Positions 2,479 to 63,815 of a stretch of DNA of 64,000 nucleotides are shown here, piece by piece. Position 1 is the first letter of the stretch, and each line of letters opens with the position of its first letter. The translations under genes were made by a program, and so were the position numbers. The stretch comes from a virus (Duplodnaviria; Caudoviricetes): IMG/VR virus record IMGVR_UViG_3300020576_001287, positions 16,489-80,488 of that record. One strand, 5' to 3'. The notes under the pieces were generated by a model that saw only the letters and a list, made by a program, of their open reading frames with translations, was not told where the DNA came from and searched no databases.

Positions 2479-2510
2479 TTCTTTGTAAAGTAACTTTAAA
2501 ATAGCGCAAC

Positions 2511-4412
2511 ATGCAACCAAACGGAGCAGCCAGAACCGAAATTAACATAGTTGATTACTCCCAGATAATAAATACATCGTTATCCGGTGTGACTAATATG
2601 CTTGGTCTTACTGAGAGGGGGTTAGTTAATACCCCTAAACTTGTGGGCACATGGGAGCAATTTCAACAGGATTTTGGGGGGCTTGTTAGTTACTCAGATT
2701 TTCCATTATATTGTAAAAGGGCTTTGGAACGTGGGGCGGCATTGATGGTATCAAGAGCAGCTAAGTTCTCTGACCTGACAGACCCTACAACCATAAGCGG
2801 GGTTAAAGCATACGTCACACAAACACAATCTACCGCTTCTGCGGCTGGGGCTACCACTACAGCTACAATGCTTACTGATGCTAATGGCACTGTAAGCGTT
2901 ATTGCAATAATACCAGGTGCTCCAAATGTAACACTGGCAGATGCAGTAGCAGTAACGGCTGCGGCAACACTGACGGATAACGTGGCTTTGATAGAAGCTG
3001 CCATAGATGCTGGAACTAGTACGCATGGTTTTTCTTCTACTGCCACTGTAGCAGCTTTGGCTATAACAGCTCCGGCCTCTTACGGGGCTTTCAGTAATCG
3101 TATAACTATACGCATAACGTCTACTACCGGCATAACATGGGATTCTTTCGTATACACTATGACAGGTGGGGTAGATGCTACTGTAAATACCGGTACTGTT
3201 ACGGTGACAGCGTTGGCTATTGGCACAGCGTACAACGGGGGCACTGTAACAGTTGGTTACCCTGCTTCTAATCGCCCACATTACTTTGACATAACTATAG
3301 CTTTGCCTGGTAGCGTATTGGCTACAGAAACATACTACGATATACCACAGGCAGGTAATACAGATGCTTTCGATACTGCTATACTAGCTATGGTACAGGC
3401 CAGCAGCATTATAAGTGCTTTTACAGCCAATGATAACTTTGTACTACAGCCACATGTTTATACTTTAGCCTCCGGTACAAATACCTCAGCACTAACCACA
3501 GCCGACTATATAGGGGATGCTACAGGGCTTACAAACCTACATTCTTTTGACAATGACGGTACGGCTACTAAGGTGGCTATACCAGACGTAGTTGATCCTG
3601 TGCTAGACATAGCATTAGTAGCCTGGGCAGATCAGCGTAAGGATTGCATGGCGATTATCCGCACTCCGGTAGGACTACAACCGTCAGTAAACATAGACTA
3701 CCGTAATGGTAGTGGAGTATATTCTCATACTCCTATAGATTCTTGGAGAGCTATCATGAGCACTGGCGGTTTGTTGGTACTTGACCCACGTACCAACACT
3801 AAAAGGAACATATCTGAAATTGGTGACCTGATAGGGGCAATAGCTTCTAAGGACAATTCTCAGGGGCAATGGTTCTCTTTTTCAGGTTCTAAGAGAGGTC
3901 TTGTAAGTAATGCTTATGGTGTCGTAATTAACGTAGGTACACCAGCACAGGTAGCTAATGCCAACCTATACGATACCAACGGTATAAACCCTGTTATACA
4001 GAACAGTGCAAAACAGATATTGTTTTGGGGTAACTCTACGTTGTGGCGCACCCGCACAAGTTTCTTAGCTAAGGCAGAGGTAGCTGAACTAATGGTGTTT
4101 TTGTACCGTTTCCTCAGTTCTGTTATCCCTAGTGAGACCTTTGAGCCTAATGATGTGGATACATGGAAAACCATTTACCGCAAGGTTAAAGCGGGTATGG
4201 ATGACCTACAGGGCCGCAGAGCTATATGGCGTTGGGATTACCAGGGGGATCAGGACATTGTAGATGTGTCACAGGCTGTTGTAAATAGCTCTGCTAACAT
4301 AGATGCCGGACAGTATAAGTTTAAGCTGTTTGTGTCTCCTAAAGTGGCTATGAAGTACATAGAGGTGACAGTGGCTGTAACAAATAGCGGTATAGACTTT
4401 ACAGAGCTATAG
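2511..4412 (+). CDS. Contractile tail sheath protein
   Basis: Sheath N-terminal motif (GLTERGLVNTPKLVGTWEQFQQDFGG) and C-terminal motifs (GINPV, FWGNSTL, FEPNDVDTW, KLFVSPKVAMKYIEV). Confidence 0.95.
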   Translation: MQPNGAARTEINIVDYSQIINTSLSGVTNMLGLTERGLVNTPKLVGTWEQFQQDFGGLVSYSDFPLYCKRALERGAALMVSRAAKFSDLTDPTTISGVKAYVTQTQSTASAAGATTTATMLTDANGTVSVIAIIPGAPNVTLADAVAVTAAATLTDNVALIEAAIDAGTSTHGFSSTATVAALAITAPASYGAFSNRITIRITSTTGITWDSFVYTMTGGVDATVNTGTVTVTALAIGTAYNGGTVTVGYPASNRPHYFDITIALPGSVLATETYYDIPQAGNTDAFDTAILAMVQASSIISAFTANDNFVLQPHVYTLASGTNTSALTTADYIGDATGLTNLHSFDNDGTATKVAIPDVVDPVLDIALVAWADQRKDCMAIIRTPVGLQPSVNIDYRNGSGVYSHTPIDSWRAIMSTGGLLVLDPRTNTKRNISEIGDLIGAIASKDNSQGQWFSFSGSKRGLVSNAYGVVINVGTPAQVANANLYDTNGINPVIQNSAKQILFWGNSTLWRTRTSFLAKAEVAELMVFLYRFLSSVIPSETFEPNDVDTWKTIYRKVKAGMDDLQGRRAIWRWDYQGDQDIVDVSQAVVNSSANIDAGQYKFKLFVSPKVAMKYIEVTVAVTNSGIDFTEL

Positions 4413-4465
4413 TATAATCTGAGGGTGAAAAAAAAAATAAAGTAACTTTAAAAATATAAAAAGTC

Positions 4466-4921
4466 ATGGCTAACGTAGCTAATACCAAGAAAGTGTTTAT
4501 GTTCCAAGTGGAAATTAACGGCCTCAACCAGTTTGAGTGTCAGAAATTTAAACCACCTGGGGTAGCTATAGACAAGGTGGAGCATGGAGATACTAACTAT
4601 AGTGTTAAAACAGCCGGACGTTACAATATTGATGACATTGTAATAGAGAAAATACGCCCGTTACCTGGCTCAGACACTTGGGCTTGGGCTTGGCTTATGT
4701 CAGCACAAGACCCTATAGCAGGAGGTGGGCAACTATCATCTAACATAAAGCAGACAATAGTAGTCCGCGAGTTGGATGCTACCGGCACCACAGTTATAAA
4801 CACATGGCAATATGATGGGTGCTGGGTATGTGGCATAGAGCAGAGCGAATTTGATCGTATGTCCAGCGACAACATCATAGAAACCGTAACCATATCTACG
4901 GACGTAGGTACAAGGTTCTAA
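4466..4921 (+). CDS. Tail tube protein (T4 gp19-like)
   Basis: 151 aa directly after the sheath; KTAGRYNIDDIVIEK, WQYDGCW, IIETVTIS motifs. Confidence 0.9.
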   Translation: MANVANTKKVFMFQVEINGLNQFECQKFKPPGVAIDKVEHGDTNYSVKTAGRYNIDDIVIEKIRPLPGSDTWAWAWLMSAQDPIAGGGQLSSNIKQTIVVRELDATGTTVINTWQYDGCWVCGIEQSEFDRMSSDNIIETVTISTDVGTRF

Positions 4922-4938
4922 ACCAATACAAATAGTTT

Positions 4939-4972
4939 TTAAAGTAGCCTCCACCATCGGAGGCTACTTTAA
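4939..4972. terminator. Perfect 14-bp stem hairpin after the tube gene
   Basis: TTAAAGTAGCCTCC-ACCATC-GGAGGCTACTTTAA. Confidence 0.75.
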
Positions 4973-5022
4973 TTTATACTAACAGTAAAATTTTGTACTT
5001 TTACATTTAAACATACAGATTT

Positions 5023-5916: not shown

Positions 5917-6098
5917 ATTCTATCTATTTTTACCTCGGCTACTGTGGGCTAAAAGGATTAGGTTTAGAGGAGTTTTACAGAATGTCACTGAACCGTATAA
6001 AGGGGTTTAAGCGAATGATGGATACGCAGAAAGAGTTTGAGAAGCAGGCCGCTAAACCGAAAGCAGGTAAGCGACCAAGTTTTACAGGCAGAAGATAA
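5889..6098 (+). CDS. -1 frameshift extension of the tail assembly chaperone (lambda G-T type)
   Basis: T_TTT_TTC at 5889-5895 is in frame; the -1 frame (FLPIGDNLDSIYFYLGYCG...FTGRR) is open to TAA at 6096-6098. Confidence 0.75.
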   Translation, partial: FFLPIGDNLDSIYFYLGYCGLKGLGLEEFYRMSLNRIKGFKRMMDTQKEFEKQAAKPKAGKRPSFTGRR

Positions 6099-6111
6099 AG
6101 TAACTTTAGTC

Positions 6112-8724
6112 ATGGGATTAGGAGTAGGTACATATAGTGATGGGTTTGGGGTAGCTTTCACGCTGCTGGATCAGTTTTCAGCAGTTGCTAGAAAGATAGA
6201 ATCCTCTATGTCCTCACTTACAGCTAAATCCACCGCATTTGCAGGGGCCATGAATAAAGGGTTGGGTTATGGGTATGCTCCGGCAAGGGAGGCAAGGGTA
6301 GTGGCTAATGAAACCATTGCTCTTGCTTCTCTTGCTGAGGAGGCGGCTATAGATAAGCTGGTTATGGATCATAGGTTAGCAGCATCTACCATAAAACTAG
6401 CAGAAGCTAACGAAACCGCAGCCATAGAAGAAGCGGTTAGAAAAGCAGAATTGGATGAAGTAGCAAAGGCGGCAGCAGCTAGACAAATTGCTATTGACGA
6501 GGCTATGAATCGTTCTAACCAGCGTAGGGCTATGGAGGCTATAGAAGCTCGTAGATTGGAAATGCTGGCAGAGATAGAGGCGGCTAATGCCGCAGCAGCA
6601 TCTGCTGCCATAGCGGAGGCTGCTAACGCTAGAGTACAAGCCAGCTTGGTTGGGCTAGGTGCTGCGGTTATAGGGTTAGCCCTGGTAATAAAGGGGGCTA
6701 AAGTAGATGAGCTATTTCAAAAAGAAGAGTTAGCTATACAGGGTTTTGTAGGTTCTGCCGACAAAGCCCATGCTGCTTTTATGGAGTTGCAAGCAGATGC
6801 CAACTTTAACCCTATGATGGGCCTAGAGAATATGCTAAAAACACACTCGCTATTACTTTCTCAGAATACCCCTATAGAGCAGTCACTACGCCTTACCCGA
6901 AACCTGAGTAACATGCTTACGGCTGTGGGTAGAGGAGCACCGGAGTTATCAAGAGTTGGTAGGGAGTTGGAGAAGATAGCAGCTATGGGCCACCTAACAG
7001 GCAGGGAGCTTAACCAGGCAGCAGCAGCCGGTATACCCTTACGCCAGCTATTGGAGGATTATTTCGGACACGCTTTGCCCAATACTTTAAAAGACTTTCC
7101 TATAACTATTGATGATCTTGATAAGGCGTTAGAATTGGCGATGCGTACAGGGGGCAGATTCTCTAAAGCGTTTGAAAAAATGTCCGAGAGTATCATGTTT
7201 CAGTTTGCAAGACTAAAGAATGAGATAACGTATACTTTCCTTGCTATAGGTAAAGCAGTGGAGCCTATTACAGTAACTGTGGGGGCTGCTTTGACAGGGT
7301 TGTTCACTACACTAAAGCTGTTTTCACAGAGTTGGGTAGGACATGCGTTTTGGATTGTAACAACCAGTTTACTTGCTTTTACTGCCGCTGTGTCCCTTGC
7401 TACTTTAGGTGGTAAGGGTTTGTCGTTGGTGCTAGGTAAAATGGCACATGGTTTGGGGTATGCCACTCTTAAAGCTACTTTAGCCACTGAGGGATTTGCA
7501 GCAACATTAGCTACTATAGGTAAAACCATAGGTAAAACCATAGTATCCAATCCAATGTTTAAATGGTTCGCAGTTTTTGCAGCCGGTACCGCACTTGTCA
7601 CAAATGCCACCAGCCATTTTAAAAGGGTTATGGAAGACCAAGAGGCTGTTACTGGGGGTATGACAGGTAGGCTACAGCGGTTAGGTGGTGTGCTGTCATT
7701 TATAACTGAGGCATTTGCCAACTACAATGAGCAAACCAAACGTTCTGATATGAGTCAGAGCATGGTAACTGCTTTGGATAAGCTGGGGTTACACAACTAT
7801 ACTGCCACCTTATTTAAACTAGTTGCTGGTACTATGGAGTTGGTATATGGTATGGGGGATGCTTTTGCACAGTTGGCGCATATAGGCATGGCAGCTTTAG
7901 AGGCTATAAGCAGCATACTATCCGGCATAAATAAAGCCCTGAAGTTTATAATACCTGGGTTTGCCAACTTAACCCAAGACCTTGATGCTATGAGGGCTAT
8001 AGGTTGGGTATTAGGTACCATAATCATAGGGGTAACTACCAACATGTTTAGGCTTGGGTTGGTATCTTCTTGGGCTTTTATACAGGTTATAGCAAAAGGA
8101 TTATGGGCAGCTATAGAAGGGTTTGGCCTATGGGCTATAGAGATACTAGCAGTTACCTACGTTACTTATGGTTTAGCAGCAGCTGTAGCCTTGGCAACAG
8201 GTGGGGTGTTACTTATAGCAGGAGTATTGGGGTACTTTGTCAGTCAGACAAATAATAGCAGTCTTGCTATGGATGATCTTGGTAGTAGTTTCAGTAATGT
8301 TGTAAAACCAATAGACGAGGCTACAGCAGCTATGAATAAATTTAAGGATGCTGAGAGCAGGCGTAATGCTTTGATGAATACCAATAAAGAGATAATGCAG
8401 GATTGGCAGAATGGTAACTATCTTAAAGCATTTATAGGCACATTAAAGCAGCCTTTTCAAATGGCTGCTATGGATTATAATGGGGATGCTCAAACACTGG
8501 CTTCACCGGAAGCTATAAACATGCCACAGGTACAACAGCAGCAGGCTATACTGAATACAACCACTCGTACAAGCGATGGTACGTATCCTGATATGAGTTA
8601 TGCACCGGCCCCAGGCAGGGATATAGTAATACCGGTGAACATAGATGGTAGAGAGGTAGCTAAAGTAACTTACCCACTACTGAAACAAATGGAGTATAAA
8701 GAAGTAGCAACAAGAAATGCTTAA
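6112..8724 (+). CDS. Tape measure protein
   Basis: Ala-rich helical protein with tape-measure motif (ELSRVGRELEKIAAMGHLTGRELNQAAAAGIPLRQLL) and hydrophobic segments; ATG 6112 preferred over 6037, which overlaps the frameshift ORF. Confidence 0.9.
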   Translation: MGLGVGTYSDGFGVAFTLLDQFSAVARKIESSMSSLTAKSTAFAGAMNKGLGYGYAPAREARVVANETIALASLAEEAAIDKLVMDHRLAASTIKLAEANETAAIEEAVRKAELDEVAKAAAARQIAIDEAMNRSNQRRAMEAIEARRLEMLAEIEAANAAAASAAIAEAANARVQASLVGLGAAVIGLALVIKGAKVDELFQKEELAIQGFVGSADKAHAAFMELQADANFNPMMGLENMLKTHSLLLSQNTPIEQSLRLTRNLSNMLTAVGRGAPELSRVGRELEKIAAMGHLTGRELNQAAAAGIPLRQLLEDYFGHALPNTLKDFPITIDDLDKALELAMRTGGRFSKAFEKMSESIMFQFARLKNEITYTFLAIGKAVEPITVTVGAALTGLFTTLKLFSQSWVGHAFWIVTTSLLAFTAAVSLATLGGKGLSLVLGKMAHGLGYATLKATLATEGFAATLATIGKTIGKTIVSNPMFKWFAVFAAGTALVTNATSHFKRVMEDQEAVTGGMTGRLQRLGGVLSFITEAFANYNEQTKRSDMSQSMVTALDKLGLHNYTATLFKLVAGTMELVYGMGDAFAQLAHIGMAALEAISSILSGINKALKFIIPGFANLTQDLDAMRAIGWVLGTIIIGVTTNMFRLGLVSSWAFIQVIAKGLWAAIEGFGLWAIEILAVTYVTYGLAAAVALATGGVLLIAGVLGYFVSQTNNSSLAMDDLGSSFSNVVKPIDEATAAMNKFKDAESRRNALMNTNKEIMQDWQNGNYLKAFIGTLKQPFQMAAMDYNGDAQTLASPEAINMPQVQQQQAILNTTTRTSDGTYPDMSYAPAPGRDIVIPVNIDGREVAKVTYPLLKQMEYKEVATRNA

Positions 8725-8726: not shown

Positions 8727-9551
8727 ATGGCTAACCCATTAGATGCACAGCTAAAGAAGAATTATACTGAGGGTAACCATGACAGTATATTAAACCGAGG
8801 GTTAAATACCACTGGGGGTAAGATGTATTTTGTCAACTTGGGTACAGGAAACAGAGAGAGTGGTAATAGGCTGGAAATACAATTTATACCATCTGACATT
8901 AACCTATCTCGTAAGGGCACTTGGGCAGAATCTAATGTGATCGGAAGAAACGACCCAAGGTACCAGTACGTAGGTGGGCAGACTACACTTAATTTTAGCT
9001 TGGACTTTTATGCTGATGAGGAGAGCCGGACTTCAGTAGTGCGTAAAGTACAATGGTTGCAGTCTCTTATAGCCAACGACAGAAGCAGGCGTAAAGCTCC
9101 TAGGGTGTTACTAGTGATGGGGTCTTTATTCACAAGTGAAATATGGATAGTGAGCAGTGTGGACGTAAAGTACGATAACCTACACAGACAATTCGGGTTC
9201 ATGCCTCAGCAGGCTATAGTAGACATAGAATTAAAGTTAGACCCATCGTTTAATACCGGATGGGATGACATTCGTAGTCAGAAGTGGGTAGCAGCTCAGG
9301 CAGACGGTATGAGGCCAATAGTGTTGGATAAAAGTGCAGACCCCACAGCGGCTAAGAAAAGTAACTTTAAACCACCATCTACCCGCCCTTATTTAGGAGT
9401 CAGAGAGGCAGATGACATTGATGTAGGTAACGGTAATGACTGGCAGGCTATTATAAAGAGAGTATCACAGCGGTATAGGTTACCATTTGGGGCAGACATT
9501 ATAAAAGACCCTGGATTTAACCCAGGCAGAATAGGTAGTATAGGAGGCTAA
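8727..9551 (+). CDS. Tail tube initiator / CIS-tube-like protein
   Basis: LEIQFIPSDINLSRKGTW...GRNDPRYQYVGG..TLNFSLDF; follows the tape measure gene. Confidence 0.75.
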   Translation: MANPLDAQLKKNYTEGNHDSILNRGLNTTGGKMYFVNLGTGNRESGNRLEIQFIPSDINLSRKGTWAESNVIGRNDPRYQYVGGQTTLNFSLDFYADEESRTSVVRKVQWLQSLIANDRSRRKAPRVLLVMGSLFTSEIWIVSSVDVKYDNLHRQFGFMPQQAIVDIELKLDPSFNTGWDDIRSQKWVAAQADGMRPIVLDKSADPTAAKKSNFKPPSTRPYLGVREADDIDVGNGNDWQAIIKRVSQRYRLPFGADIIKDPGFNPGRIGSIGG

Positions 9552-12154: not shown

Positions 12155-12612
12155 TACCAGTAGCCACAGTTATACAAGATAAATTACAGCAGTATTTTGA
12201 TGCTTCGTACCCCACCTTTATAGGCTGGGGTACAACTGATTTAGAGATGTTGAACAGATGGGCAGATGTGATTGATTTTGTATTAGCTGGGGTGGTGCCG
12301 GTTAGCCTAACATCTGTTGCAGCTAGGGCAGCGTTCATAACTACGCTAACCCCAGGTATGGGAGCATTAGGAGCTTTTCAAGTAACTTTAGTTTCTGCTT
12401 TACAACAATACGCTATAGTATTAGCCGCTGGTATGTTACCAGCCTTTACAGGTATTCCCCCAGTGTTACCACCGGCTATAGTTTTTACAGGGTTGGTAAC
12501 TAGGTCAGCAGCTACCGAAATGGCAAACTTATCTGTAGTCTTATATACCTGGGCAGCATCGGGCACCGCAGCTACCCTACCTTCAGGTACTCCCATTGTA
12601 CCTTGGATTTGA
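12151..12612 (+). CDS. Hypothetical baseplate-region protein
   Basis: Translationally coupled ORF between spike and gp25-like genes. Confidence 0.55.
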   Translation: MIPVATVIQDKLQQYFDASYPTFIGWGTTDLEMLNRWADVIDFVLAGVVPVSLTSVAARAAFITTLTPGMGALGAFQVTLVSALQQYAIVLAAGMLPAFTGIPPVLPPAIVFTGLVTRSAATEMANLSVVLYTWAASGTAATLPSGTPIVPWI

Positions 12613-15343: not shown

Positions 15344-15880
15344 ATGAGCGTAATAAAGATGTACATGGTATACACATTTGCTATTTTGGAAAAAGGCACT
15401 TTACCTATGAAAGTAGGATCGTGCTTTTTGTTTGCTTTATCCATATCTCCGTTAGCCTGGTTAATAAAGTTAGTGCGGGAGCATGTTATACGGGACACAG
15501 GGTTTATAGAGGTGCTTTTAATATGCCTGCTGATGGATATGATTATAGGTATATGGAAGCACTTAAAACAACGCACGTTTGATTGGAAGCGGCTATATAC
15601 AGGGTTAATAGAAAAGGTTGGGATTACTTTTATAGGCATGGTAGTTTTCAACTTAATATCAGACATAAAGGAGTGGTCTCACCTCGTTACAGTAAAGGAG
15701 TACATAATACTGGTCGGCAAACTGACAAACTTATTCTATGTTGCAGGGTCTGCTTTCAACAGCATGTATATAATTACAGGTGGTAAGTTTCCACCGCTAG
15801 GCTGGATGAAGCGTATGCACTCCTTTGACGATAGCCTAAACCCAGAAGACTTAACAAAAGAAAATAATAACCAACACTAA
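15344..15880 (+). CDS. Holin-like membrane protein
   Basis: Several TM segments; LLMDMIIGIWKHLK...LYTGLIEK resembles phage holin family 4; charged C-terminus. Confidence 0.65.
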   Translation: MSVIKMYMVYTFAILEKGTLPMKVGSCFLFALSISPLAWLIKLVREHVIRDTGFIEVLLICLLMDMIIGIWKHLKQRTFDWKRLYTGLIEKVGITFIGMVVFNLISDIKEWSHLVTVKEYIILVGKLTNLFYVAGSAFNSMYIITGGKFPPLGWMKRMHSFDDSLNPEDLTKENNNQH

Positions 15881-15893
15881 AGTAACTTTAATT

Positions 15894-18202: not shown

Positions 18203-18301
18203 GTACAGGTAAAACAACATACAGCAATGGGCATACGTAATCTATAAATATAGGTGTTTAAAAACGACTGCTATTAAAGTTACTTTTAACATCTGTATTA
18301 C

Positions 18302-19748: not shown

Positions 19749-20330
19749 ATGGCAGGTAAAAATAACCCGTTTGATAAAAGTTTTGCGGTGTATAAACCGA
19801 TAGCTCAGGTGGAAGTAAAGAAGCTTACCCCAGAGGAGAGAAAAGCGCAAAAGGCACTGGTAATAAACCTCAGAGATTTTATACTGGGAGAGTACCCAAA
19901 GCCGGAAAAAGTAGAGGGGGCTACACCCACTTCAAGTTACTTTAGGTGTACTATAAAGGACATGGGGTTACACCCTTTTGAAATTGATATTTACGATGCT
20001 CGTATCCTGCTTGTGGAAGTGCTTGACAAACAGGTAAAGGATGCAGATGGTAATATGGTTCCATTCAGGCGTTTTGTGAGCAGGCACTATAGTATAAACA
20101 CCGCCCTGGATTCCATTGCTACCATTACAGCAAAAAGAAAGCTGAACAAAATGGATAGCTCAGTAATAACCATGAGGGATTACCATGATGCTTATTACGG
20201 TATACAGAAGTACTTGGCTAAGGTTATTGCCCCTGAGTACGCTAAAGCCCTTGATAAGCTACAGGCAGCTCTGCCATTTACGCAAATATCTGTTAACGAG
20301 GATGACGAAGAAGATTGGTTTAAAAAGTAG
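19749..20330 (+). CDS. Hypothetical protein
   Basis: ORF; ATG downstream of the promoter. Confidence 0.65.
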   Translation: MAGKNNPFDKSFAVYKPIAQVEVKKLTPEERKAQKALVINLRDFILGEYPKPEKVEGATPTSSYFRCTIKDMGLHPFEIDIYDARILLVEVLDKQVKDADGNMVPFRRFVSRHYSINTALDSIATITAKRKLNKMDSSVITMRDYHDAYYGIQKYLAKVIAPEYAKALDKLQAALPFTQISVNEDDEEDWFKK

Positions 20331-36505: not shown

Positions 36506-36591
36506 TGAAACTTAGAGGCGTATTACCCATAGCACACATTTTATCCTACTTAAAATAAAGTAACTTTACAAAACAAATAAAAACAACAGCA

Positions 36592-37938: not shown

Positions 37939-37961
37939 AGTAACTTTAAAACATAATTATC

Positions 37962-43045: not shown

Positions 43046-43363
43046 ATGACTACAGAAGCACTTGAACAGGCTAAAAAATTAGTTGAACAGGCTAAAAAAT
43101 TAGAGGCGGCTATAGCTAATTACACTAGGCACCTGGAAGAGGTATCAGGAGACACTACGGAGGCCATAGCTATAGAGGCTAGTTCAGGGGGTGCTAACCC
43201 TGCATCTATATCATTTGTAGTGGCTAATGAAGAGAGCACAGACCTGCATTTAGATTTATTTGCAGAGTTCAACATACCTACTCCTAAGATGGTAATTGAC
43301 CAATATATAGCGGCTGTGCAATCTAAGATTACACAACTTAAACAGGATTTTGAAGCCCTTTAA
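43046..43363 (+). CDS. Hypothetical coiled-coil protein
   Basis: ORF; C-terminus resembles that of 39136-39393 (QLKQDFEAL vs ELEKQFEAL). Confidence 0.6.
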   Translation: MTTEALEQAKKLVEQAKKLEAAIANYTRHLEEVSGDTTEAIAIEASSGGANPASISFVVANEESTDLHLDLFAEFNIPTPKMVIDQYIAAVQSKITQLKQDFEAL

Positions 43364-43372
43364 AGTTACTTT

Positions 43373-44086
43373 ATGTCAGACCAAGAATTACTACACTACC
43401 TTAAAGCCGACACGGATAAACCAATTAAGCATAGTTGGAAGTGTATAGGGTTAAACTCAAATGGTATCAAAGTGTATGAGTGTAGAAACTGTAACCTCAA
43501 AAAGGGTAATATGCAGGTACCACCCACTATGCGATTATTTACACGGTACATTAAACCAGACGGTACTACACAAGTTAGAGCCGGAAAATGTGAATCAAGT
43601 TTAAAACCAGATATAAATATGGAAAATCAACCAGTGCGTAAAGCACAAACGACAATCGGATGTATACCAATGCACGACAGGGTGTACATCAAAGAGGCAG
43701 AACATGAAACCCAAACCAAGGGGGGTATAATATTGCCGGACAACTTGGACAGAGAGCCTAAGACCTGGGGTACAATCGTAGCAATGGGGCCAGGGTACTC
43801 TGATAAACCCATGATAATAGAGCTAGGTGATGTAGTGCGCTACAGTAAACACGCTGGTACTGAAGATGAGATAGACGGTGTTAAGTACAAGGTAATCCGT
43901 GAATCTGACATATTCAGCATTAAGGTACCGGTACCAACCGCTGCCGAGACTACAAAATTTCCCGTAGTTGACACTACGCCTGTAAGAGGTAAGGTAGACA
44001 TTGGGGAGTTAGAGGATAAGGAATACGAAGAAACCCCACAACAGTATCAGGCACGTTTAGCCGCTAAAGCAACTGCTAAAAAATAA
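43373..44086 (+). CDS. groES: GroES-like co-chaperonin with N-terminal Cys-rich extension
   Basis: PMHDRVYIK...TKGGIILPD...GTIVAMGPG...GDVVRYSKHAGTE...IRESDI. Confidence 0.88.
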   Translation: MSDQELLHYLKADTDKPIKHSWKCIGLNSNGIKVYECRNCNLKKGNMQVPPTMRLFTRYIKPDGTTQVRAGKCESSLKPDINMENQPVRKAQTTIGCIPMHDRVYIKEAEHETQTKGGIILPDNLDREPKTWGTIVAMGPGYSDKPMIIELGDVVRYSKHAGTEDEIDGVKYKVIRESDIFSIKVPVPTAAETTKFPVVDTTPVRGKVDIGELEDKEYEETPQQYQARLAAKATAKK

Positions 44087-45736: not shown

Positions 45737-45988
45737 ATGGCACTTAACGCACATGCTCCTGAAAACAGAATAATACAGCAGATAGTAGATGACTACTATG
45801 CTCGTGACCCTAGGGCTATTAATGGTATCATACAACCTAGCTACGGGCCTATGCCTAAGTATGTTATAGATACCTTAGAAGAAATGGGGTTTATTGTAGA
45901 TTACGAGGCTTTTAGTTCCGGCATTTACCAGTATCACGTAGTAACCCCAGAGGATGCTGAAATATACAGACAATCACACCTAAAGTAA
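45737..45988 (+). CDS. Hypothetical protein
   Basis: ORF with A-rich leader. Confidence 0.55.
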   Translation: MALNAHAPENRIIQQIVDDYYARDPRAINGIIQPSYGPMPKYVIDTLEEMGFIVDYEAFSSGIYQYHVVTPEDAEIYRQSHLK

Positions 45989-46010
45989 CTTTAAAAACCA
46001 ATATACAGTT

Positions 46011-47195: not shown

Positions 47196-48347
47196 ATGGC
47201 AAACGAAGACTACCAACAACCAGCTTTCCCTACATACGAGCATGATAATAATATTGATGGTACACCTTATTTAAGGTTAGCTAGCGAGGGTATGTTACTA
47301 CTTGACCACCTAGCGGCAATAGCGTTACCACAAATGATAATAAAGTTTTGGCCCCATAAAGAAAATGCCGCTCACCATGCTTATGAGTATGCCAGGGAAA
47401 TGATGGAAGCACGTAAAAAATACATAGAGCAATGAGAGTAAACCACATAACCATACACGAGAGACCTAGCAATAGTAACCAGGTAACCATACACATCTGC
47501 GAAAACGCATTTGAAGCTATTGGCAAACCTACTCACATAGTATTCAGTGAGACAAACCTACGCCTAAAGGTTCCTAGCATTATATCCAACGGTGAAAAAA
47601 GGTTGGCTACAGGTATGTATAAGCCACAGATAACCCCAATAATACACCATACTCCCATAGCTTCATTAGTAGGTAAGTGGGAGTATGAGGTAGACGATCT
47701 AAGCATTTATTTAACTAATAAAATATCGTAAGCATGAATCAGAGAATAGATGTGCAAACTTTGGAAGCATCGTTAGTAACCGTAGCAGAGCCTATACCAG
47801 CAGACGAGCAGTTATGTACTCCTGAACTGTATAAGCGTAAACATGCGGAGCTGAAGAAGATGCTAAATAGGTATGAGCTAACCACCAATAAGACGGTTAA
47901 AGCTGCTTTAGATACCAGGTTAAAAGAAAAGACAGCAGAGCTAACCCGTATGCGTAAATATTTGCAACGGGTATTAGGTACTAACTTTTTAAACAAATAG
48001 TTATGCGGACAAAAACACTAAGCAACTCTGCCCCAACAGTAGGGGTAGTTATGGATTTACGGGACAATTTTACCCCTACTTTTGAAACCCTTATTGAAAG
48101 CTTCAAAAGAGGGCAGGCAGCATACCATAAGTTTAAGGTAGATGCTAGGGTAGCAGCTATACAGGAAACGTCCTACATGACACCTGGGGGCACTATATAC
48201 GGCATACCTTGGACAGGTAAGATACTATGCCACCCTGACGATGTATACAGGGTTATATTTATGGCTGGTGTAGACGATATATCCATAGACGTAGCTGGGG
48301 CATACGCAAAGAACAGGCTTCACAAATTCATAGACAAACTAAAGTAA
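47196..48347 (+). other. Four small hypothetical CDS: 47196-47435, 47432-47731, 47734-48000, 48003-48347
   Basis: Coupled ORFs. Confidence 0.6.
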
Positions 48348-48381
48348 CTTTAATAACCAACATAAAAACAAATACAACAGT

Positions 48382-51472: not shown

Positions 51473-53745
51473 ATGAATGAAGATTGGGTTTATGAGTTTA
51501 GGGGTATTTTCACTAACCCTATAGTAGCTAGTGTAACGGGTTTTATTATAAAGTCAGATGTAATAGGCTTAAAGGCTACTGAAATTCGTCAAGGGCAAAA
51601 AACAGTATTACTACCAATGGTAATAGAAGGGGTAGAGAAAAAACTACGTGAGGTCTATGGTATAGACACTGTTAAAATACTAACTATACAAACTTGGCGT
51701 TCTGAAGACAAAGGCAAAACATTTTATCCGATAATACCTTAGAGCATAACTATGACAAGAATATTAGAAGTAGCCGGAACTGCGATTAACCCAATAAGTA
51801 TATACAGCATTAGCCCTATACGGGATATGCGGCATGGTATGGGGTTTGAGTTTGTGGTAACCCTTACAAATAACGAAAAAATAACCTGTAGTGAGACTGT
51901 GGCAGACGATGTAAGTCGTAAGGGCCGATACTCCACAAACCCAGCGGATAAGCAGATAATTTCAGAAGCTTTAGAATACGTTAAAAGCTCCATACACAAT
52001 AACAGAGAGTTTATTAAAACCTGCTGGCAATCAGCATTAAACGAGCAAAAACATGGCAACAGTTAAAGTAACCGCAGCAGTAGCTGCATACGCAAGAGAA
52101 CAGGGGTTATTAGCTGCTGAAGAGGCTGCAATGTCTGATAAAGACTTAGCCCAGCATCTTAACAAGATAGAACAGGCAGAAACGCTGGCCCTATTGGTTA
52201 AGTGCTACATATACAATGCCATTGACCAGGCAAGGGAACGCAAGGATAAGTTACTACAGCCTACCATTAACTTTACTCAGTGGGTTAACGATAATGTGGT
52301 TATTCTCAATGATACCCTTTTTCTACACAAGGGAGAAACCTACACTAACAGAGTTATGTATGAGGTATATTTAAAAGCTGTAGATACTTCATTTACCCCC
52401 GCCCCTTCCCCTTACAGTCAGCTATTAAACAGTTAAAAAAATAATCATACAGCCATGCAGCAAAATCAAAATCTCACGTACACTAAAGTAACTTTTGAGG
52501 ACAAAGGACAGGACTTTTTAACCTTCCTTATTGAGTTCTACCCAGACTACCAATATGGTACAGTTGTAGCAGTTGATCCCGCTTTCCAATACAGTGTATG
52601 GGTAGGGCAAATTGTGCTGTCCGGCAAGCCTGCTAAGGGCAAATACCTTGCTGTAAGTAAGTCTCCTAAAGATGCTGTAACCACCATTAAGTATAAAATG
52701 GAAAAGGTGGAGCATGGTATAGAATTGGAACTATACCATCTAACCAGGTACGACCCGCAAGAGTACGGATATATAGAAGCTGCGATAGTAGCTGCTACGG
52801 ATCAAGAGGATGCCTTAGTAGTACTACGTAGTGATAATAATAGCCGGTTTGCGGAGTTAGCAGATAGCCCAGAAACGGTTATTCATCATGTGGGTACTGC
52901 CAATAACAAACAACGAAGAGGGGTAATTACTTCCAGTACTTGTGCGGAATAGTTAAATCTTATACCCCTATCAACAATACTAATACCTAATAATTTAAAG
53001 TTACTTTACTTTTGACTTATGAACAACTGCATACCTTGTGAGACACCTAAAACACCACTTGAAGCGGCTAGGCTAATGCAGCATCATTTGAACAATGTCA
53101 TAGCCGATCTGGATACACTTAACCGTATGGATAAAATCGGGTTAACTTCAGCAGGTTTTGAAGCCGTTAGAGATAACGTAACTGAACGTATGGCAAGTAA
53201 TGCTATGCACCTTACAGGGGCTTATAAAACCCTAGCTGATTTATACAATAAGGAAGTGTATGCTAAAGAGGATTATAAACCATTCACAACCAACATACCG
53301 GTATGATGCAGCTAAAGCCCTTTACCACCAAGACAGAGCCGGTAACATCTACCAGACTATTCCCAGCTACCATACTGTATATAGCTGGTCAGGAGGTAGG
53401 GTATATTACCCGCAACCTAGCCGGTTTAAAGTCTGGAAGTATCAGCTATGCTTTTATATGGAAAATGCAGATAGGTTTTGATAAGCTAGTAGGGAATGAT
53501 CCTGAAGCATTGAAAGAAGATGCTATAAACAAATTTCGTAGCTTTATAAATTCAGTTTTAGAATGAATCAGGCCACTATAAATAATTACGGATATGTATG
53601 CCCTGTTAAAGGTTGTGTTAAAAAGCACAATCGCAGGTTTAGTAGTTGTAGAGGGCTAGTTAATCACATGTTATCTTGTCATGGTGAGGCAGAAGTTGTA
53701 AAAAGATTGCGATGTAAAAAAGAAAGGCGAGGTTGTCCAGGATAA
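51473..53745 (+). other. Small hypothetical CDS: 51473-51742, 51752-52066, 52053-52436, 52455-52952, 53019-53306, 53303-53566, 53563-53745
   Basis: Co-oriented, tightly packed ORFs with A-rich leaders. Confidence 0.6.
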
Positions 53746-53793: not shown

Positions 53794-53958
53794 ATTTATA
53801 TTTAAAATAGTGGGTTCGCTAATGAACGGAGGTCTAAAGATTGAACAAAAGCTTTAGAAGTCTATTACCCTAGGGAGTTGTGCGCTAATCAGCTTACAAG
53901 GTGTTACGGTGGCCGGAGAAAGCACAATAACCGTATTTTTGCTTAAAGTAACTTTATT

Positions 53959-55080: not shown

Positions 55081-55631
55081 ATGCCTTTAGTATCTCAAAA
55101 AACCACTGCAACATTTAAGCAGTACGGAAAAGAAAAGAAGATAGTTTTTGCTGGTAGCGTTGCCCAGGCTTTAACTGTAATAGATAAGCTATACCCATCG
55201 TATTGCTGTTTTAAAGGTACTACTTTGAGTTGTAGAATGTCTGCCGGTGGTAACTATACCATAACCGATGTATTAACCGGAAAAGTAGAGCATGAGGCCC
55301 GTAATACTCTTTAGCATCTATACCCCAATAACTTTTATCAATACTAAAGTAGCTTTAACCAGGCTACTTTTGTTTTTATTATAAACAACTAAAAACATTT
55401 ATAGTTATGCAACATTTTAAAATAGGACAAAGAGTAAAAGTATCTGAAGCAAACGACAATGATAATTATGCCAGTTTTCGTAATGTTGTTTTAATGGTAG
55501 TATCTGGTGGTAACTCAGGCCCAGGTTATGATACAAGTATGTACCCAGAATATTTGTACGACCTTAAAAATGCAGAAACTGGAGAGTTTATTGACTGTGC
55601 TTTATATGACTATGAATTAACCGCAGCATAA
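55081..55631 (+). other. Two small CDS: 55081-55314 and 55407-55631
   Basis: ORFs; the second follows a cassette promoter. Confidence 0.55.
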
Positions 55632-55633
55632 GC

Positions 55634-58279: not shown

Positions 58280-59170
58280 TGCTATAGGCCCAGGCTATAC
58301 ACCAATAGATTTTTACAATTTTGTTTTTTATTTTATCCTCATACTTTTGCTAAATACTTAACAACTAAAATTTATCAAAATGCTACAGACAAAAAAGAAT
58401 GTTCAGGAATTGACAGCGTATGAACTTTTAAACGGTTTGCGCCAATACTTTTTAAAATCTCATGGCATGGCATATACACAGCCTGTATACACTCTAGCGG
58501 AATTACAGGCAGAAAAAGCCCGTAGGGATGAGATAACCGGTAAACCTTTAACCGGTCAGGAGCAAATAAATTTCATTGCTGCCAATGCTGAAGTATTAAA
58601 GGATCACGATACAAAAGAATTGTATCAAATGGCCTTTGAAAGAGTGCTAACTAAGGCTTTACCTTATACCTCGTTTCACTACGGGAAAAATTACATGATA
58701 GATAAATTTCATGTTAATTTTAATCACACTATAGAACACAATAAAAACCGGTTTGAAACATTTTTAAAAATGTTGGGTATTGACATTTATTTGTTTGGCC
58801 TGTATAATAATCATAATCATTTATTTGATTCTGATTACTTCCGTAGATCAGATAAACCAAATACTTTTGTTAACGCTAAATTGGACAACCTTGTAAATTT
58901 TCTAATTACGTTAACCACCGGACAGCAAACCGAGGATTTAAAACAATGCCATGAATTTATGGCAGCTAATAACCTGGAGCATAAACAAGCAAAATATAAA
59001 TTTACAATATCCGGTTTGACTGTAGAAGGTTTTGTAAATGGTAATATTAAAATTACTGGGTTAACCGAGGAAAACAATAAACTAATTGACGGGCTACTTA
59101 ATATAAAGCATTTAATATATAAGAATTGGCAGGAATCCAAATAAACGCCTTTTAAAGTAACTTTAATTAA

Positions 59171-60895: not shown

Positions 60896-61831
60896 ATTAT
60901 AGCTTTTAACTATAGCCGGATAGTATTTTGTGATTCTGTTTTATTTAAAGTTACTTTAGTTTTGCCCTATCATTAACAACTAAAATTTACTTACAATGAA
61001 TCAGAAAATTAATTTAGTGGAATTAAGTAACGCGATACAAGCATACAAAAACTGCATTGCAGCAAAAGAACAGAATGATAATACCAGGCATTGGGCAAAT
61101 GTATGGTTTGAGGTAATTGACAAAGCAAATAATCTATTACCGCATGGTAGCGGTATGGATAACAAAATATATTTTGAGATTGCAGAATGTACTGCAAATA
61201 AGCTTATAATTAAATTCGATTATCACCACATGGCAGAGGGATACTATACCCATTGGAGTAATTATAAAGTAATAATTACTCCCGCATTTGGCGGATTTGA
61301 ATTAAATATAAAAGGTAGAAATTATAACGATATTAAAGATTATTTTTATGATATGTTTGATCCCCTTTTTGATTGCCCGACCATAGCACAATGGCAGGAG
61401 CAAAGAAAAATGCAATCGGTAAAATAGTTTTTTGATCCTTATTACTCCACTATCTAAAATTTATAAAAAATGAATACCGCAAATATTGAATTTAAACAAG
61501 TAAATAATAGTACTACCGGCACTCCTCGTTATGTATGTCATTTTACAGCCTTGATAACTGATAAAGACGAGCAAGAAATAAAAGATACTTTTGCAGCATC
61601 GTTACAACTTAACCCGTTATTACTTACCAGTCTAAAATATGAGAGAGCCTTAAGCAAAGTTAAAAAGTTAGGCGGTAAGAAATACCACAATAAAAATTAC
61701 GGTGGTGGTATCGCCTTTAGTGTTTGGAATACTGCAAAACTTGAAAATACTTTAACTGAATTATTAAAAGTTGCACCTCCCGCAGTACCTTGTATCAGTT
61801 AAAATACTTTTGCATTTTAATTTTTGATCCT

Positions 61832-61865
61832 TACCCATATCTTTGCGGATATGGGTATTTTTTTG
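61832..61865 (+). terminator. Intrinsic terminator closing the + strand array
   Basis: TACCCATATC-TTTGCG-GATATGGGTA plus T-run. Confidence 0.8.
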
Positions 61866-62023
61866 CCCTACTTGCTACCAGGCATACACCCAATAGCATT
61901 TTATAAGCTTTTAACCTACCTACGAGTTAAAATGCGTTACAATAAAGCAAAAGTAAGGTATACCCACACAAAGTACTATTTTAGGCGCAAATAGGCTATT
62001 TTTAATAAAGCTATTTTAATACA

Positions 62024-62058
62024 AATAAAAATCCCTTTACCGATTAAAGTAAAGGGAT
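62024..62058 (-). terminator. Intrinsic terminator closing the - strand array
   Basis: ATCCCTTTAC-CGATTAAA-GTAAAGGGAT preceded by an A-run on +. Confidence 0.75.
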
Positions 62059-62082
62059 CAATAGTAAGTATTGTTTAGATTA

Positions 62083-63556
62083 TTATTTGTATAGTTCACA
62101 TAAAGTATTGTATTCAGCTATTAAAAGCCTATCAGTATTTTTGTAGTCATTGTTACGACCGTTAGCATGTATAAATTCACCTGTAACAAGATCGTGAAAA
62201 TAAGTAGCTAACCCCACATCTTTGTAGCTGCTTTTACTTACTACGATTAAATAAGTATCCGTAAAGTATACATACACCCGTTTATCTGATTCCGGCTTGA
62301 CCAGTAATATTTTTTTAGGCTTTAATGCTATAATCGCTTTTAATCTGTCAAAATTTCTCATACTATAGTTATGTTTAAATTTTTAAAGTAACTTGAGATT
62401 ATATTATACACTACTTCAGTTGTTACGCCTTTTATCTTTTCGTTATCGTTATCCCTGCTAATATTGCTACTACCATGCACCCAGTAAAAAGTGTGGTAAT
62501 CAGTCTTATAAGTACATTTTTCAAACCTTATACCACTAACACTAGTATTTGTTTTTAATACTTCTTTTATGCGTTTAATTAACTTCATTACTTTATTTAG
62601 GGCTACTTTATACGCTTGATAATCTTGTATGTCTATTTGAGATAAGACAGCGTTATTTAAAAGTATAGTATCTAAACAATCAAAACCTATATTATAACTT
62701 TTACCGTTACTGTTTATGGTAGCTATGTTGGCTATTAGTTTACCGCAATTATCGCAGGAGCACCCATAACCATCTAGTATAGATACGTACTGTTTATTAA
62801 TTAGTGTATAAGTTACATTAAGCGGTAATCTCCTTTGTGTTATATTTTTCATACTTACTTATTTTTAGCTGTTAACAAAGTTATGCGTATTTCGTTTATT
62901 GCTTCATTCACATATTCACCGCCTTTTATCTGCCATACTTGTGCTAACTGCAATAAATCCGGTTTAGTTAGTGTGGCAAGTTGTTTGCGGTATCCTGTAG
63001 GATTGTATACATACTCATTTACTAGGGCTTTTAATTGCCCAATTTTTCGTGTTAGTGCTGAAGTAGGTAGTTTGGTAATTAGTCTATTTTGATCCATAAT
63101 TAAAGGCTATTTAGTTGTTTTGCAATAATGCATCATTACTAGTATCTTGTAGTACTTCAGTTGTTAGTATGTTGTGGTGCAACATTAGTACTTTTAAACC
63201 CGTCACTAGCTTATTATATTGTTCGGTTGGGTAATTCATTTTATTTAGTTGTTAGTTGTTAATAATGATTATTGTTTGTTTTATCCCCTGTATGCTACTA
63301 CTGCCTCATCGTTACTACGATTAAAGGTAATACAGTAAGCGGAACTATTTGTTTGGGTATATACCCCATGCGTAAAGTTATTGTTAGTAGTTCGCATAAA
63401 CATACAAAGCGGTAACGCCTCGTTATTGTGATCACAGATTACATACATTGTTTCCGATGCAAGTTCTAAGCCCAAATAATCCACATTATCGGATTGCTGT
63501 TTTTCTGTAAGGTCGTAGTAGCTCACTACCTCAGAACGGTTATAAAAGTACGTCAT
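62083..63556 (-). other. Minus-strand small CDS: 62083-62361, 62358-62852 (CxCxxC..C), 62855-63097, 63111-63239, 63281-63556
   Basis: Coupled ORFs with AACAACTAA leaders and a promoter at 63591-63610. Confidence 0.65.
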
Positions 63557-63815
63557 AATTGAAAAGTGTTTTTAGTTGTTATCAATACCCCAAAAGTAAA
63601 GTAACTTTAATTACTTGCCAATACTATTAACTTATACCCACTATAGCCAAAACTTATAACCCTATCAATTTACGCCTATTGCCCAATAGCCACATTATAC
63701 GCCTATAGCATACATCTAAACACTATAGCCATTATGATACTGCAACATGCTATATGGATCAGTAGTATACTTATGTTGCTATGCATGCTTATGTATCCGT
63801 AGTAAGCTATAGTTA

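Follow-up and report, generated by a model that had tools for sequence, protein, structure and literature searches.

Why should an uncultured 80-kb tailed phage repeat one 13-mer palindrome roughly every 2 kb, coding sequence included, and what reads it? The window analysed here is a stretch of 64,000 nt from a record of 80,488 bp, and site coordinates follow the numbering of the window. A first-pass annotation had reported at least 20 perfect and about 12 near-perfect copies and a chance expectation far below one. Both statements are borne out: TAAAGTWACTTTA occurs 20 times without mismatch, each copy exactly where that annotation had placed it, against 0.02 copies expected from dinucleotide shuffles, and 12 further copies carry one mismatch. 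Another 11 carry two, giving 43 in total, with 6.7 expected. The whole record holds 27 perfect copies; the reversed control gives 0. The perfect sites, to which no strand is assigned, are listed below (K-V-T-L marks copies translated into these residues).

2486..2498, intergenic; sheath ATG 12 nt downstream, -7 box TATTTTTG (2471-2478) 7 nt upstream; position kept in L072, G006 and G007
4438..4450, intergenic; tail-tube ATG 15 nt downstream; position kept in L072, G006 and G007
6096..6108, 3 nt upstream of ATG 6112, probable start of a tape-measure-like gene
15878..15890, first TAA is the stop of 15344-15880; ATG 15894 3 nt downstream
22700..22712, within helicase gene; K-V-T-L
25567..25579, within N-terminal piece of family-A DNA polymerase; K-V-T-L
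27593..27605, within HNH-like endonuclease gene splitting polA; K-V-T-L
33263..33275, first TAA is the sbcD stop; ParB-like gene 92 nt downstream, of which this is a candidate autoregulatory site
35227..35239, within sbcC; K-V-T-L
36556..36568, intergenic; ATG 36592 23 nt downstream
37936..37948, first TAA is the endolysin gene stop; ATG 37962 13 nt downstream
39414..39426, close to the 5' end of ORF 39397-39666; K-V-T-L
43361..43373, first TAA is the stop of 43046-43363; ATG 43373 begins with the last A of the site
45981..45993, central TAA is the stop of 45737-45988; ATG 46011 17 nt downstream
48340..48352, central TAA is the stop of 48003-48347; ATG 48382 29 nt downstream
52996..53008, intergenic; last 2 nt shared with -7 box TACTTTTG (53007-53014)
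53944..53956, 2 nt after -7 box TATTTTTG (53934-53941), covering the expected transcription start; ATG 53959 2 nt downstream
59153..59165, intergenic; a stop codon 8 nt upstream, a terminator-like hairpin downstream
60946..60958, ATG 60996 37 nt downstream
63597..63609, intergenic, near the record's right end; about 40 nt upstream of minus-strand gene 63281-63556

The sites with one mismatch, likewise unstranded, are:

7470..7482, GCTAC core; within the tape-measure-like gene
9357..9369, first base A; within a gene
12378..12390, TCAAGT; within a gene
18275..18287, intergenic; DnaB-like ATG 14 nt downstream; G006 has perfect sites at the equivalent place
19932..19944, within a gene
29787..29799, end of DNA methylase gene, 20 nt upstream of the SSB-gene promoter (full host type, TTTG-N22-TACTTTTG)
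31920..31932, GTAGC; first TAA is a stop; adjoins ATG 31933
33127..33139, within sbcD
41974..41986, GCTAC; first TAA is a stop; ATG 41989 2 nt downstream
52484..52496, close to the 5' end of ORF 52455-52952
55345..55357, GTAGC; within an early promoter cassette, in its spacer, with -7 box TACTTTTG (55365-55372) 7 nt downstream; twin with two mismatches at 56318-56330
62384..62396, within minus-strand gene 62358-62852

About one third of the copies lie within genes, and here selection on the DNA itself can be demonstrated. Codon-preserving shuffles, a check that the first-pass annotation had suggested, leave 0.97 copies in coding sequence, against 11 observed. The peptide KVTL occurs 12 times in this genome with 0.8 expected (15-fold), and the exact 13-mer spells every occurrence but one (11 of the 12). 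Observed and expected numbers are 10 and 0.5 in G006, 33 and 0.36 in G412, and 8 and 0.27 in G413; the controls G001 and G002 give 0 and 0.46, and 1 and 0.62. The earlier observation that five in-gene copies all read K-V-T-L is confirmed, but this frame is mostly forced, because the motif reads TAA in frame 0, and also in frame 1 if W is A; the unforced part of the pattern is the KVTL enrichment together with its spelling by the exact 13-mer. Copies had also been said to supply stop codons. This is so for the first TAA of six sites (15878, 31920, 33263, 37936, 41974 and 43361) and for the central TAA of the sites at 45981 and 48340. At 6096 it depends on the reality of a hypothetical 38-aa ORF; more likely, this copy merely precedes, by 3 nt, the true start codon (ATG 6112) of the tape-measure-like gene.

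The motif is not peculiar to this phage. It is carried in bulk by four unrelated lineages: A (this genome, G006, L271, L272), B (G009; 59% GC, integrase present), C (G412, G414, L415, L416; hosts use Shine-Dalgarno, SD, sequences) and D (G413). Conservation among related phages was another of the proposed checks; the TerL relatives G001-G005 lack both the motif and HTH_ParB. Between this genome and G006 the sites change position at conserved density. The 41 sites with at most one mismatch in the whole record are spaced more regularly than chance; the CV of gaps lies below random here (0.51), in G412 (0.60) and in G413 (0.51; P<3e-4 each), and also in G414 (0.69, P 0.015) and G009 (0.67, P 0.02), and evenness beyond chance was not found for the gaps of G006. 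The centre base is free, being mostly C or G in L271. Each lineage extends the palindrome symmetrically, by AT...AT in L072/L081 and by C...G in G412/G009, which argues that dyad symmetry itself is under selection.

According to BLAST, phmmer and pairwise-profile comparisons, all four share essentially only PolA (family-A DNA polymerase) and a ParB/KorB-like protein, here encoded by:

33368..34486, + strand, orphan ParB/KorB-like gene, 372 aa, between sbcD-like and sbcC-like genes

The protein consists of an N-terminal CTPase-type domain with a GHRR box, HTH_ParB, a helical region and an acidic disordered tail, and carries ParB boxes I-III besides the HTH. It matches PHROG 1033 (E 2e-29) and, above its cut-off, PF17762. 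Its best PDB sequence matches are KorB 8qa8 and Spo0J 1vz0, and its AF2 model is closest in Foldseek to KorB 8qa9, ParB and Noc. The protein of lineage C, although remote, is a genuine ParB: it matches PHROG 1033, and Foldseek ranks KorB, Noc and ParB highest for it. Aligned by hhalign, A3 and A6 match over N-domain and HTH with 96.6% probability (E 5e-10), and the G414 protein reaches 85.7% as compared with at most 2.2% for all other G414 proteins tested. Of 9 genomes, 8 have a site upstream of the ParB-like gene at a distance of at most 120 nt (P 6e-5), and in L273 no other perfect site occurs in 15 kb.

We therefore regard it as probable, in the absence of binding data, that the palindromes are parS/OB-like loading or operator sites of the phage's own orphan ParB/KorB-family protein. 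The first-pass annotation had inferred a dimeric phage protein acting at many sites, in regulation or chromosome organisation, with this ParB as first candidate; comparative evidence supports both, given that the ParB alone besides the DNA polymerase is common to the motif lineages, is absent from motif-less TerL relatives and has the upstream site. Binding as such is inferred. The small wHTH and the recombinase, the other candidates named, are not common across lineages. Because ParB-like proteins are common in phages, co-occurrence alone is no proof, and for two lineages the assignment depends on remote homology. A further point against this reading is that lineages with the same site differ in the recognition helix. 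A relative's ParB (P0007) with a near-identical recognition helix, SETHISNCLLL, is encoded on a 5.3-kb contig without the motif, and the syntenic relatives L275, L277 and L278 possess the ParB-HTH but not the motif, a pattern that fits changed ParB specificity, although their specificity has not been shown.

The sites could instead be operators of another dimeric DNA-binding protein of the phage, a small HTH or wHTH repressor or activator, the link to ParB being coincidental. This is unlikely, though not negligible. Many small early-region proteins have no assigned function, a 78-aa ORF at 38781 has a homologue in G006, and the ParB-like recognition helices are not conserved across the motif lineages (SPTHITDCLIL in this phage, SVAYAGDLRRL in G009, SEMWISKVARV in G412). 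Yet the searches above recover no other cross-lineage protein, independent small factors would hardly come to read an identical 13-15-bp palindrome in four lineages, and the sites upstream of the ParB-like gene would stay unexplained.

The surroundings of the intergenic copies might suggest a transcription or translation signal read on the coding strand, either a phage-specific promoter element resembling the Bacteroidota -7 box (TAACTTTA as against TAnnTTTG) or an A/U-rich translational enhancer before start codons. Most of these copies are situated 0-30 nt upstream of an ATG, the G412 site adjoins GGAG-N6-ATG, and in several relatives copies precede the MCP, sheath and tube genes; moreover, the 3' half of the motif equals the core of the T7 gene-10 'epsilon' element. 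The coding-strand centre base at intergenic sites is A in 53 and T in 9 of 62, which may point to a constraint on direction, for which a symmetric dimer offers no explanation; the bias may also come from the use of the central TAA as stop and from A being preferred ahead of start codons. Nevertheless, such a signal is distinctly improbable. Neither role needs a perfect, symmetrically extended palindrome, or accounts for the third of the copies that lie deep within genes under DNA-level selection. There is no -33 element, the distance to the ATG varies and some copies overlap it, and the annotated proteins include neither an RNA polymerase nor a sigma factor. The motif is not a promoter: host-type Bacteroidota -7 boxes are separate elements, and it falls upstream of, on or downstream of them. 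The earlier remark that other copies sit on promoters is correct for about 8 of 23 intergenic host-type -7 boxes, which have a copy within 46 bp. No stable RNA hairpin could be derived from the motif (0 to -1.9 kcal/mol), and the hosts initiate translation differently, the SD fraction being 0.03 here versus 0.5 in G412.

Very little weight can be given to other DNA transactions, such as T5-like strand-specific nicks, priming or replication signals, recombination hot spots or packaging signals. The sharing of PolA by all lineages, the regular spacing, and the clustering of G006 sites beside the primase and DnaB genes would suit them, as would the deletions between palindromic repeats in Cluster O phages (PMC4351075). 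However, PolA is not sequence-specific, no nickase or other candidate enzyme is common to the lineages, a palindrome would be cut on both strands, and the site upstream of the ParB-like gene is again left without explanation. Least credible is a site for a host nucleoid-associated protein or global regulator exploited by phages: a shared cellular factor could explain an identical site in unrelated phages, but in 401 sampled Bacteroidota genomes the motif is not enriched, its 0-7 copies per genome not exceeding those of the reversed control, the hosts evidently differ (SD-using and non-SD, GC 41% and 59%), and G001-G005 have Bacteroidota-type promoters without the motif.

For a ParB/KorB-family protein at the palindromes, the closest known counterpart is KorB of the IncP plasmid RK2, an autoregulated member of the ParB family that combines a CTPase-type N-domain with an HTH and whose operator OB has a 13-bp palindromic core with free centre base (TTTAGCGGCTAAA in the oligo) and is dispersed over RK2, some copies adjoining promoters and some far from any; its clamp slides up to ~1.5 kb and silences promoters (PMC11790492). 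The likeness extends to domain layout, the 13-bp free-centre palindrome and dispersed copies on a mobile replicon, and in both sequence and fold the phage protein matches KorB best. About a dozen OB sites are present on RK2, whereas the phages have 27-70 per genome, evenly spaced and many in coding sequence. KorB works with the ParA protein IncC and with clamp-locking KorA, whereas the phage has no ParA; it also has no integrase and is not a plasmid. Noc of Bacillus subtilis, whose structures 7ol9 and 7nfu are among the fold matches, is similarly an orphan ParB paralogue without ParA function that spreads from dispersed palindromic NBS sites chromosome-wide. Noc, however, tethers DNA to the membrane by an N-terminal amphipathic helix and blocks division, while the phage protein has no reported amphipathic helix, a long acidic tail and a viral context.

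Among phages, Cluster O mycobacteriophages carry more than 30 invariant 17-bp palindromes (TGTTCGGNNNCCGAACA, variable centre) in a ~70-kb genome, in short intergenic gaps and within genes, and encode the ParB-like gp90; a purely transcriptional role was thought unlikely, and function and binder were left open among three candidate DNA-binding proteins (PMC4351075). That study reports no cross-lineage co-occurrence test (PMC4351075). Dispersed variable-centre palindromes in gaps and genes and an encoded ParB-like protein are thus common to both systems, which differ in sequence and host phylum.

Cluster A stoperators, an analogy drawn at first pass, are 13-bp sites present 20-35 times in a genome, chiefly in short gaps between genes, and a single phage protein binds them with genome-wide effect. 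They fit more poorly, because they lack symmetry, follow the direction of transcription and are the targets of the immunity repressor of temperate phages; here the site is a perfect dyad, the candidate binder belongs to the ParB family, and no lysogeny module is present except a small serine invertase-like recombinase. Canonical ParABS systems (chromosomal parS; the prophage-plasmids P1 and N15) also place a ParB-fold protein on a palindromic centromere-like site, but with a ParA ATPase and one or few clustered sites near the origin, whereas the phage sites tile the genome.

ParA was searched for in this genome, G006 and G009 and none was found, so that the system would not be one of DNA partitioning. 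We found no published description of a ParB/KorB-type clamp used in this manner by a phage without sign of lysogeny. By analogy, a ParB dimer would read the dyad through its HTH, the N-terminal GHRR domain would close it into an NTP-dependent clamp, and the clamp would slide or spread from each site, so that with a site every ~2 kb the entire chromosome could become ParB-coated. Such clamp behaviour, and any physiological output, is inferred. The likely KorB-like outputs would be autoregulation, a genome-wide mark or compaction of phage DNA, and occlusion of those host-type promoters whose spacer or start point is occupied by a site; such occlusion could contribute to the timing of early genes.

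In the window, the 13-bp palindrome TAAAGTWACTTTA is present in 20 copies against 0.02 expected, as far above chance as the first-pass annotation had supposed; with up to two mismatches, 43 copies are found against 6.7 expected. Across the whole genome, i.e. the full record, perfect copies number 27; the reversed 13-mer used as control is absent. According to our own ORF calls, 16 of the 27 are intergenic or lie on a stop codon and 11 lie within called ORFs, two of these probably being intergenic in fact. An A-centred motif on the coding strand closes two of the three reading frames, which explains both why copies usually end the ORFs that enter them and why K-V-T-L is mostly the sole possible in-gene reading. 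The stop-codon overlaps listed earlier are correct, only the one at 6096 hinging on a hypothetical 38-aa ORF, and in-gene copies do read K-V-T-L, a regularity mostly forced by stop codons in the other frames. For the tetrapeptide, 12 occurrences in this genome compare with 0.8 expected; each of the 23 other orders of its residues is found 0-3 times. Of the 12, 11 are spelled by the exact 13-mer. Shuffling of synonymous codons, a check proposed in the annotation, leaves 0.97 copies within coding sequences against 11 observed. Taken together, these results mean that the DNA word dictates the protein sequence.

The sites are also evenly distributed. For the 41 sites with at most one mismatch, the coefficient of variation of gap length is 0.48 against 0.97 for random placement, a value as low being reached in none of 5,000 simulations, and the widest gap is 4.1 kb against 8.2 kb expected. 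In the relative G006, evenness of spacing is not significant. At intergenic sites, and only there, the centre base on the coding strand is biased (A 53 times, T 9 times), the A-centred orientation predominating before start codons. The bias is partly due to the central TAA being used as stop codon; a directional constraint cannot be excluded.

The window covers bases 16489-80488 of the IMG/VR record, which has 80,488 bp and is about 95% complete according to CheckV. Nearly all genes are on the plus strand, with coding density of 94% and 6% of non-coding sequence. PHROG and Pfam scans identify it, by sequence matches, as a myovirus that encodes replication and recombination functions of its own:

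Structural genes: HNH, TerS, intein-bearing TerL, portal, protease, MCP, sheath, tube, baseplate
DNA genes: DnaB, primase, helicase, split family-A polymerase, DNA methylase, SSB, SbcD, SbcC, RusA, Dda, RNase H
Other genes: endolysin, small serine recombinase

Annotation of this genome turned up neither an RNA polymerase nor a sigma factor, nor a tyrosine integrase. Only 3% of its genes are preceded by a Shine-Dalgarno-like sequence and about 23 intergenic TAnnTTTG boxes precede genes, which fits a Bacteroidota host. No DNA match to this genome was found among GenBank phages, and protein-level matches of the sheath, as well as of the PolA of G412 (a genome of another lineage), are distant only. 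TerL, encoded upstream of the window (L124:4031-6718, genome coordinates), has 895 aa compared to 571 aa of its 64%-identical homologue in L081; the surplus of about 340 residues (approximately aa 84-422) includes a LAGLIDADG-like block and is probably an intein, with one perfect palindrome near the C-terminal end of the extra segment (aa 391). The family-A DNA polymerase (window 24956-29011) is split into pieces of 708 and 335 aa with an overlapping gene for a 331-aa HNH-like endonuclease between them; in G006 and the contig L271 it is unsplit, with about 880-895 aa.

Relatives of this genome (lineage A) were recovered by motif scans of IMG/VR and by TerL- or ParB-based searches. Single-protein TerL and ParB searches of viral contigs found nothing; the relatives came from alignment-based and motif-based scans instead. 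They carry the motif in multiple copies:

Relatives within lineage A and their copies of the palindrome
G006: 62.8 kb, 30-55% amino-acid identity, 36 perfect copies
G007, G008, L072, L081: 10-14 kb, 5-6 copies each
L271: 21 kb, 9 copies, centre base mostly C or G
L272: 6.9 kb, 5 copies

The motif count is zero in five more distant TerL relatives (G001-G005, at most 52% identity), which have other repeats of their own. In the 56.6-kb record G001 (L141-L143) an asymmetric word, TAACGAAAATTCTAAAAATCC, recurs 24 times at about 12-15 nt before ATGs, with orientation following the gene strand; it could represent another kind of element, directional and either start-associated or part of promoters. 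G002 (L137-L140) has about eight full Bacteroidota promoters (TTTG-N19-TATCTTTG; e.g. 31821, 33506, 35123, 37517) with the conserved spacer GAACTCCAAAAC, and G003 (L144-L145) has two arrays of tandem repeats of about 24 bp with ACTTTCGAAT, at about 18.8 kb and at 35.4-35.65 kb; the record ends in one of these arrays.

The identical 13-bp word is present in bulk in three further lineages unrelated to lineage A:

Genomes of unrelated lineages and their sites
Lineage B, G009: 59 kb, 59% GC, integrase-bearing, 28 sites matching TAARGTNACYTTA with at most one mismatch
Lineage C, G412: 48 kb, complete, 70 sites
Lineage C, G414: 43 kb, complete, 35 sites
Lineage D, G413: 41 kb, 41 sites

By our own estimate, about 3e-4 perfect copies are expected in G009. 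The hosts of both lineage C genomes use Shine-Dalgarno sequences, and the site there abuts GGAG-N6-ATG. In these genomes, too, K-V-T-L is enriched, by 15- to 90-fold, and the sites are spaced more evenly than at random. All-against-all searches with BLAST, phmmer and pair profiles found no more than two proteins shared between lineages, namely the family-A DNA polymerase and an orphan ParB/KorB-like protein, the candidate binder of the 13-mer:

Window 33368-34486, plus strand: ParB-like protein, 372 aa, with boxes I-III including GHRR, HTH_ParB, a helical region and an acidic disordered tail

The HTH_ParB domain (PF17762) is matched with 31.5 bits against a cut-off of 22.6, and is found also in G006, G009 and G413. 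Box II (GxxRxxA) is present together with boxes I and III of the ParB/Srx fold, GHRRFTAA aligning with GARRYRG of KorB and GERRYRAA of Spo0J. Pfam ParB_N is not reported for this protein at E 0.01; the G006 protein is above the cut-off and that of G413 just below. Its top Foldseek matches are nucleotide-bound KorB and ParB structures, and the solved structures closest to it by sequence and fold are those of KorB (8qa8, 8qa9), ParB and Noc. As both HTH and N-domain criteria are met, the protein can be assigned, on grounds of sequence and predicted fold, to the ParB/KorB/Noc family; binding and hydrolysis of CTP and closure of a clamp are inferred.

Lineage C at first appeared as a counter-example, as PF17762 and a custom ParB HMM found nothing in G412 and G414. 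This was overturned by PHROG, profile-profile and fold searches, which uncovered a very divergent ParB-like protein. It matches PHROG 1033, and hhalign of the ParB alignment against that of the G412 homologues gives 96.6% probability (E 5e-10) over both N-domain and HTH, the Foldseek list being headed by KorB, Noc and ParB. The G414 protein reaches 85.7% in hhalign, every other tested G414 protein at most 2.2%. Sites also occur on two contigs that encode homologues 45% identical to the G412 protein: one has 27 over 13.9 kb, the other 21 over 8.3 kb. In the motif-less G001-G005 HTH_ParB was not found; G002 has only two ParB-N-domain-like proteins, with matches covering little or none of the HTH region.

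In 8 of 9 genomes the ParB-like gene is preceded by a site at a distance of at most 120 nt (Poisson-binomial P 6e-5), and in L273 this is the sole perfect site in 15 kb. In all members of lineage A, the gene is located between sbcD and sbcC. Recognition helices are not conserved between lineages sharing the site, no specificity-determining pattern was found in them, and a near-identical helix exists on a short contig without the motif. The syntenic relative L277, with a near-identical ParB-like recognition helix and no 13-mer, has a 9-bp palindrome, GTTATTAAC, four times in 5.3 kb (2177, 2190, 2963, 3477), once just upstream of the parB-like gene; its specificity may have changed. In G009, two short ORFs separate the ParB-like gene from a nearby tyrosine integrase gene (G009:1481-4776), and in this lineage the system may serve lysogeny or immunity.

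Several other roles of the palindrome were considered. That the sites act mainly as gene-specific operators was dropped because their gene-by-gene conservation with G006 is weak: for three genes (sheath, tube, DnaB) a site precedes the gene in both genomes, for 15 others in one genome alone. Site density is kept although positions differ, which argues for a density-dependent, genome-wide role over a fixed regulon. The suggestion that other copies sit on promoters holds for some of them only:

Window 52996, 55345, 56318 and genome 1488, 3293: motif in the spacer or -33 region of host-type promoters
Window 2486, 53944: motif over the expected transcription start point of host-type promoters

Other copies are nowhere near a host-type -7 box. 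The motif as promoter itself is rejected, as canonical -7 boxes exist apart from it and its register to these boxes or to ATGs is not fixed. It does not meet the Bacteroidota sigma-A consensus (-33 TTTG / -7 TAnnTTTG, the -7 element ending in G and TTTG 17-23 bp upstream), reading TAACTTTA instead, and in the site profile neither the flanks nor an upstream TTTG are conserved, the distance to start codons varying from site to site. TAACTTTA, the right half of the 13-mer, matches what we take to be the core of the 'epsilon' element of T7 gene 10 (TTAACTTTA), a translational enhancer with complementarity to the region of E. coli 16S rRNA near position 460. Early promoter cassettes in window 55300-60000 are repeated and share an upstream element, the -7 box TACTTTTG and a leader (ctttatcattaac); just two of them have a degenerate palindrome in the spacer. 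Stoperators of the Cluster A type are asymmetric sites that follow the direction of transcription and are bound by the immunity repressor of a temperate phage, whereas ours is a perfect dyad, and a search for a tyrosine integrase found none in this genome or G006. An RNA hairpin or terminator is rejected on minimum free energies of 0.0 kcal/mol (13-mer) and -1.9 kcal/mol (15-mer), and the sequence following the sites is A-rich, not T-rich as in a terminator U-tract. A host regulon is not supported, with 0-7 copies in each of 401 Bacteroidota genomes, same as for the reversed control; two MAGs encoding distant ParB relatives have no motif enrichment.

The most economical reading is that the palindromes form a parS/OB-like lattice for an orphan clamp of the ParB/KorB family. 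Binding is inferred from indirect evidence only: protein and motif occur together in four lineages, the protein is absent from relatives without the motif, and in 8 of 9 genomes the gene has a site in front of it, with the caveat that ParB-like proteins are common in phages. The closest known system is KorB-OB of plasmid RK2, followed by Noc-NBS. KorB-OB has a 13-bp palindromic core, operators dispersed both near and far from promoters, and a CTP clamp that slides up to about 1.5 kb from the operator (PMC11790492). With a site every ~2 kb, such clamps, once loaded, could spread over the whole phage chromosome. The phage system differs in having many more sites, in that these are written into coding sequence, and in belonging to a viral replicon without sign of lysogeny; ParA was not found. 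The ParA/Soj profiles PF13614 and PF01656 have no match in this genome, G006 and G009, and both match in 14 of 14 control genomes. Canonical ParABS, in contrast, has a partner ParA and one or few clustered centromere sites, instead of 27-70 dispersed sites per genome.

The 13-mer was not found in a phage context in the papers searched. The nearest published phage parallel is the 17-bp dyad repeats of Cluster O mycobacteriophages, present in >30 copies, whose function was left open and for which the ParB-like gp90 was among three suggested binders (PMC4351075). According to a 2025 survey, mobile elements and phages encode many orphan proteins of the ParB fold, some ParB folds binding ATP or GTP instead of CTP; the passages searched, those on phages, do not describe a site lattice of this kind (PMC12704722).

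Sites inside or over host-type promoters, together with the one in front of the ParB-like gene, point to repression and autoregulation of the KorB kind. Even tiling, turnover of positions and sites written into genes suggest an additional genome-wide role, e.g. marking, compaction or protection, which cannot be distinguished here. The conserved placement of the gene between those for the Mre11- and Rad50-like proteins hints that it may be connected with recombination-dependent replication or with the processing of DNA ends. As a tentative extension, which we consider possible and yet unlikely, virulent-looking phages of several bacterial phyla would use the clamp and its dense, even lattice of one conserved palindrome, extending into coding sequence, to coat their whole chromosome as a mark of viral 'self', rather than merely regulating a few promoters. 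Such a coat could assemble a ParB condensate or a replication factory, protect phage DNA against nucleases or defence systems of the host, or tell phage from host DNA for the neighbouring Mre11/Rad50-like nuclease. Within this reading, that the 13-bp word is kept while the protein diverges past BLAST recognition suggests a further constraint on the site.

If the ParB-like protein binds the sites, ParB/KorB clamps would not be confined to chromosome segregation and plasmid silencing. Phages without a lysogeny module would then use them genome-wide, under a requirement so strong that in each genome at least a dozen unrelated proteins have to accommodate K-V-T-L. The proposal also offers a testable explanation for the long-unexplained Cluster O palindromes. 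With one 13-bp site over four lineages and different host types, the protein and its site present a compact, portable pair with which the loading of clamps, their spreading and silencing at long range could be studied on a viral chromosome.
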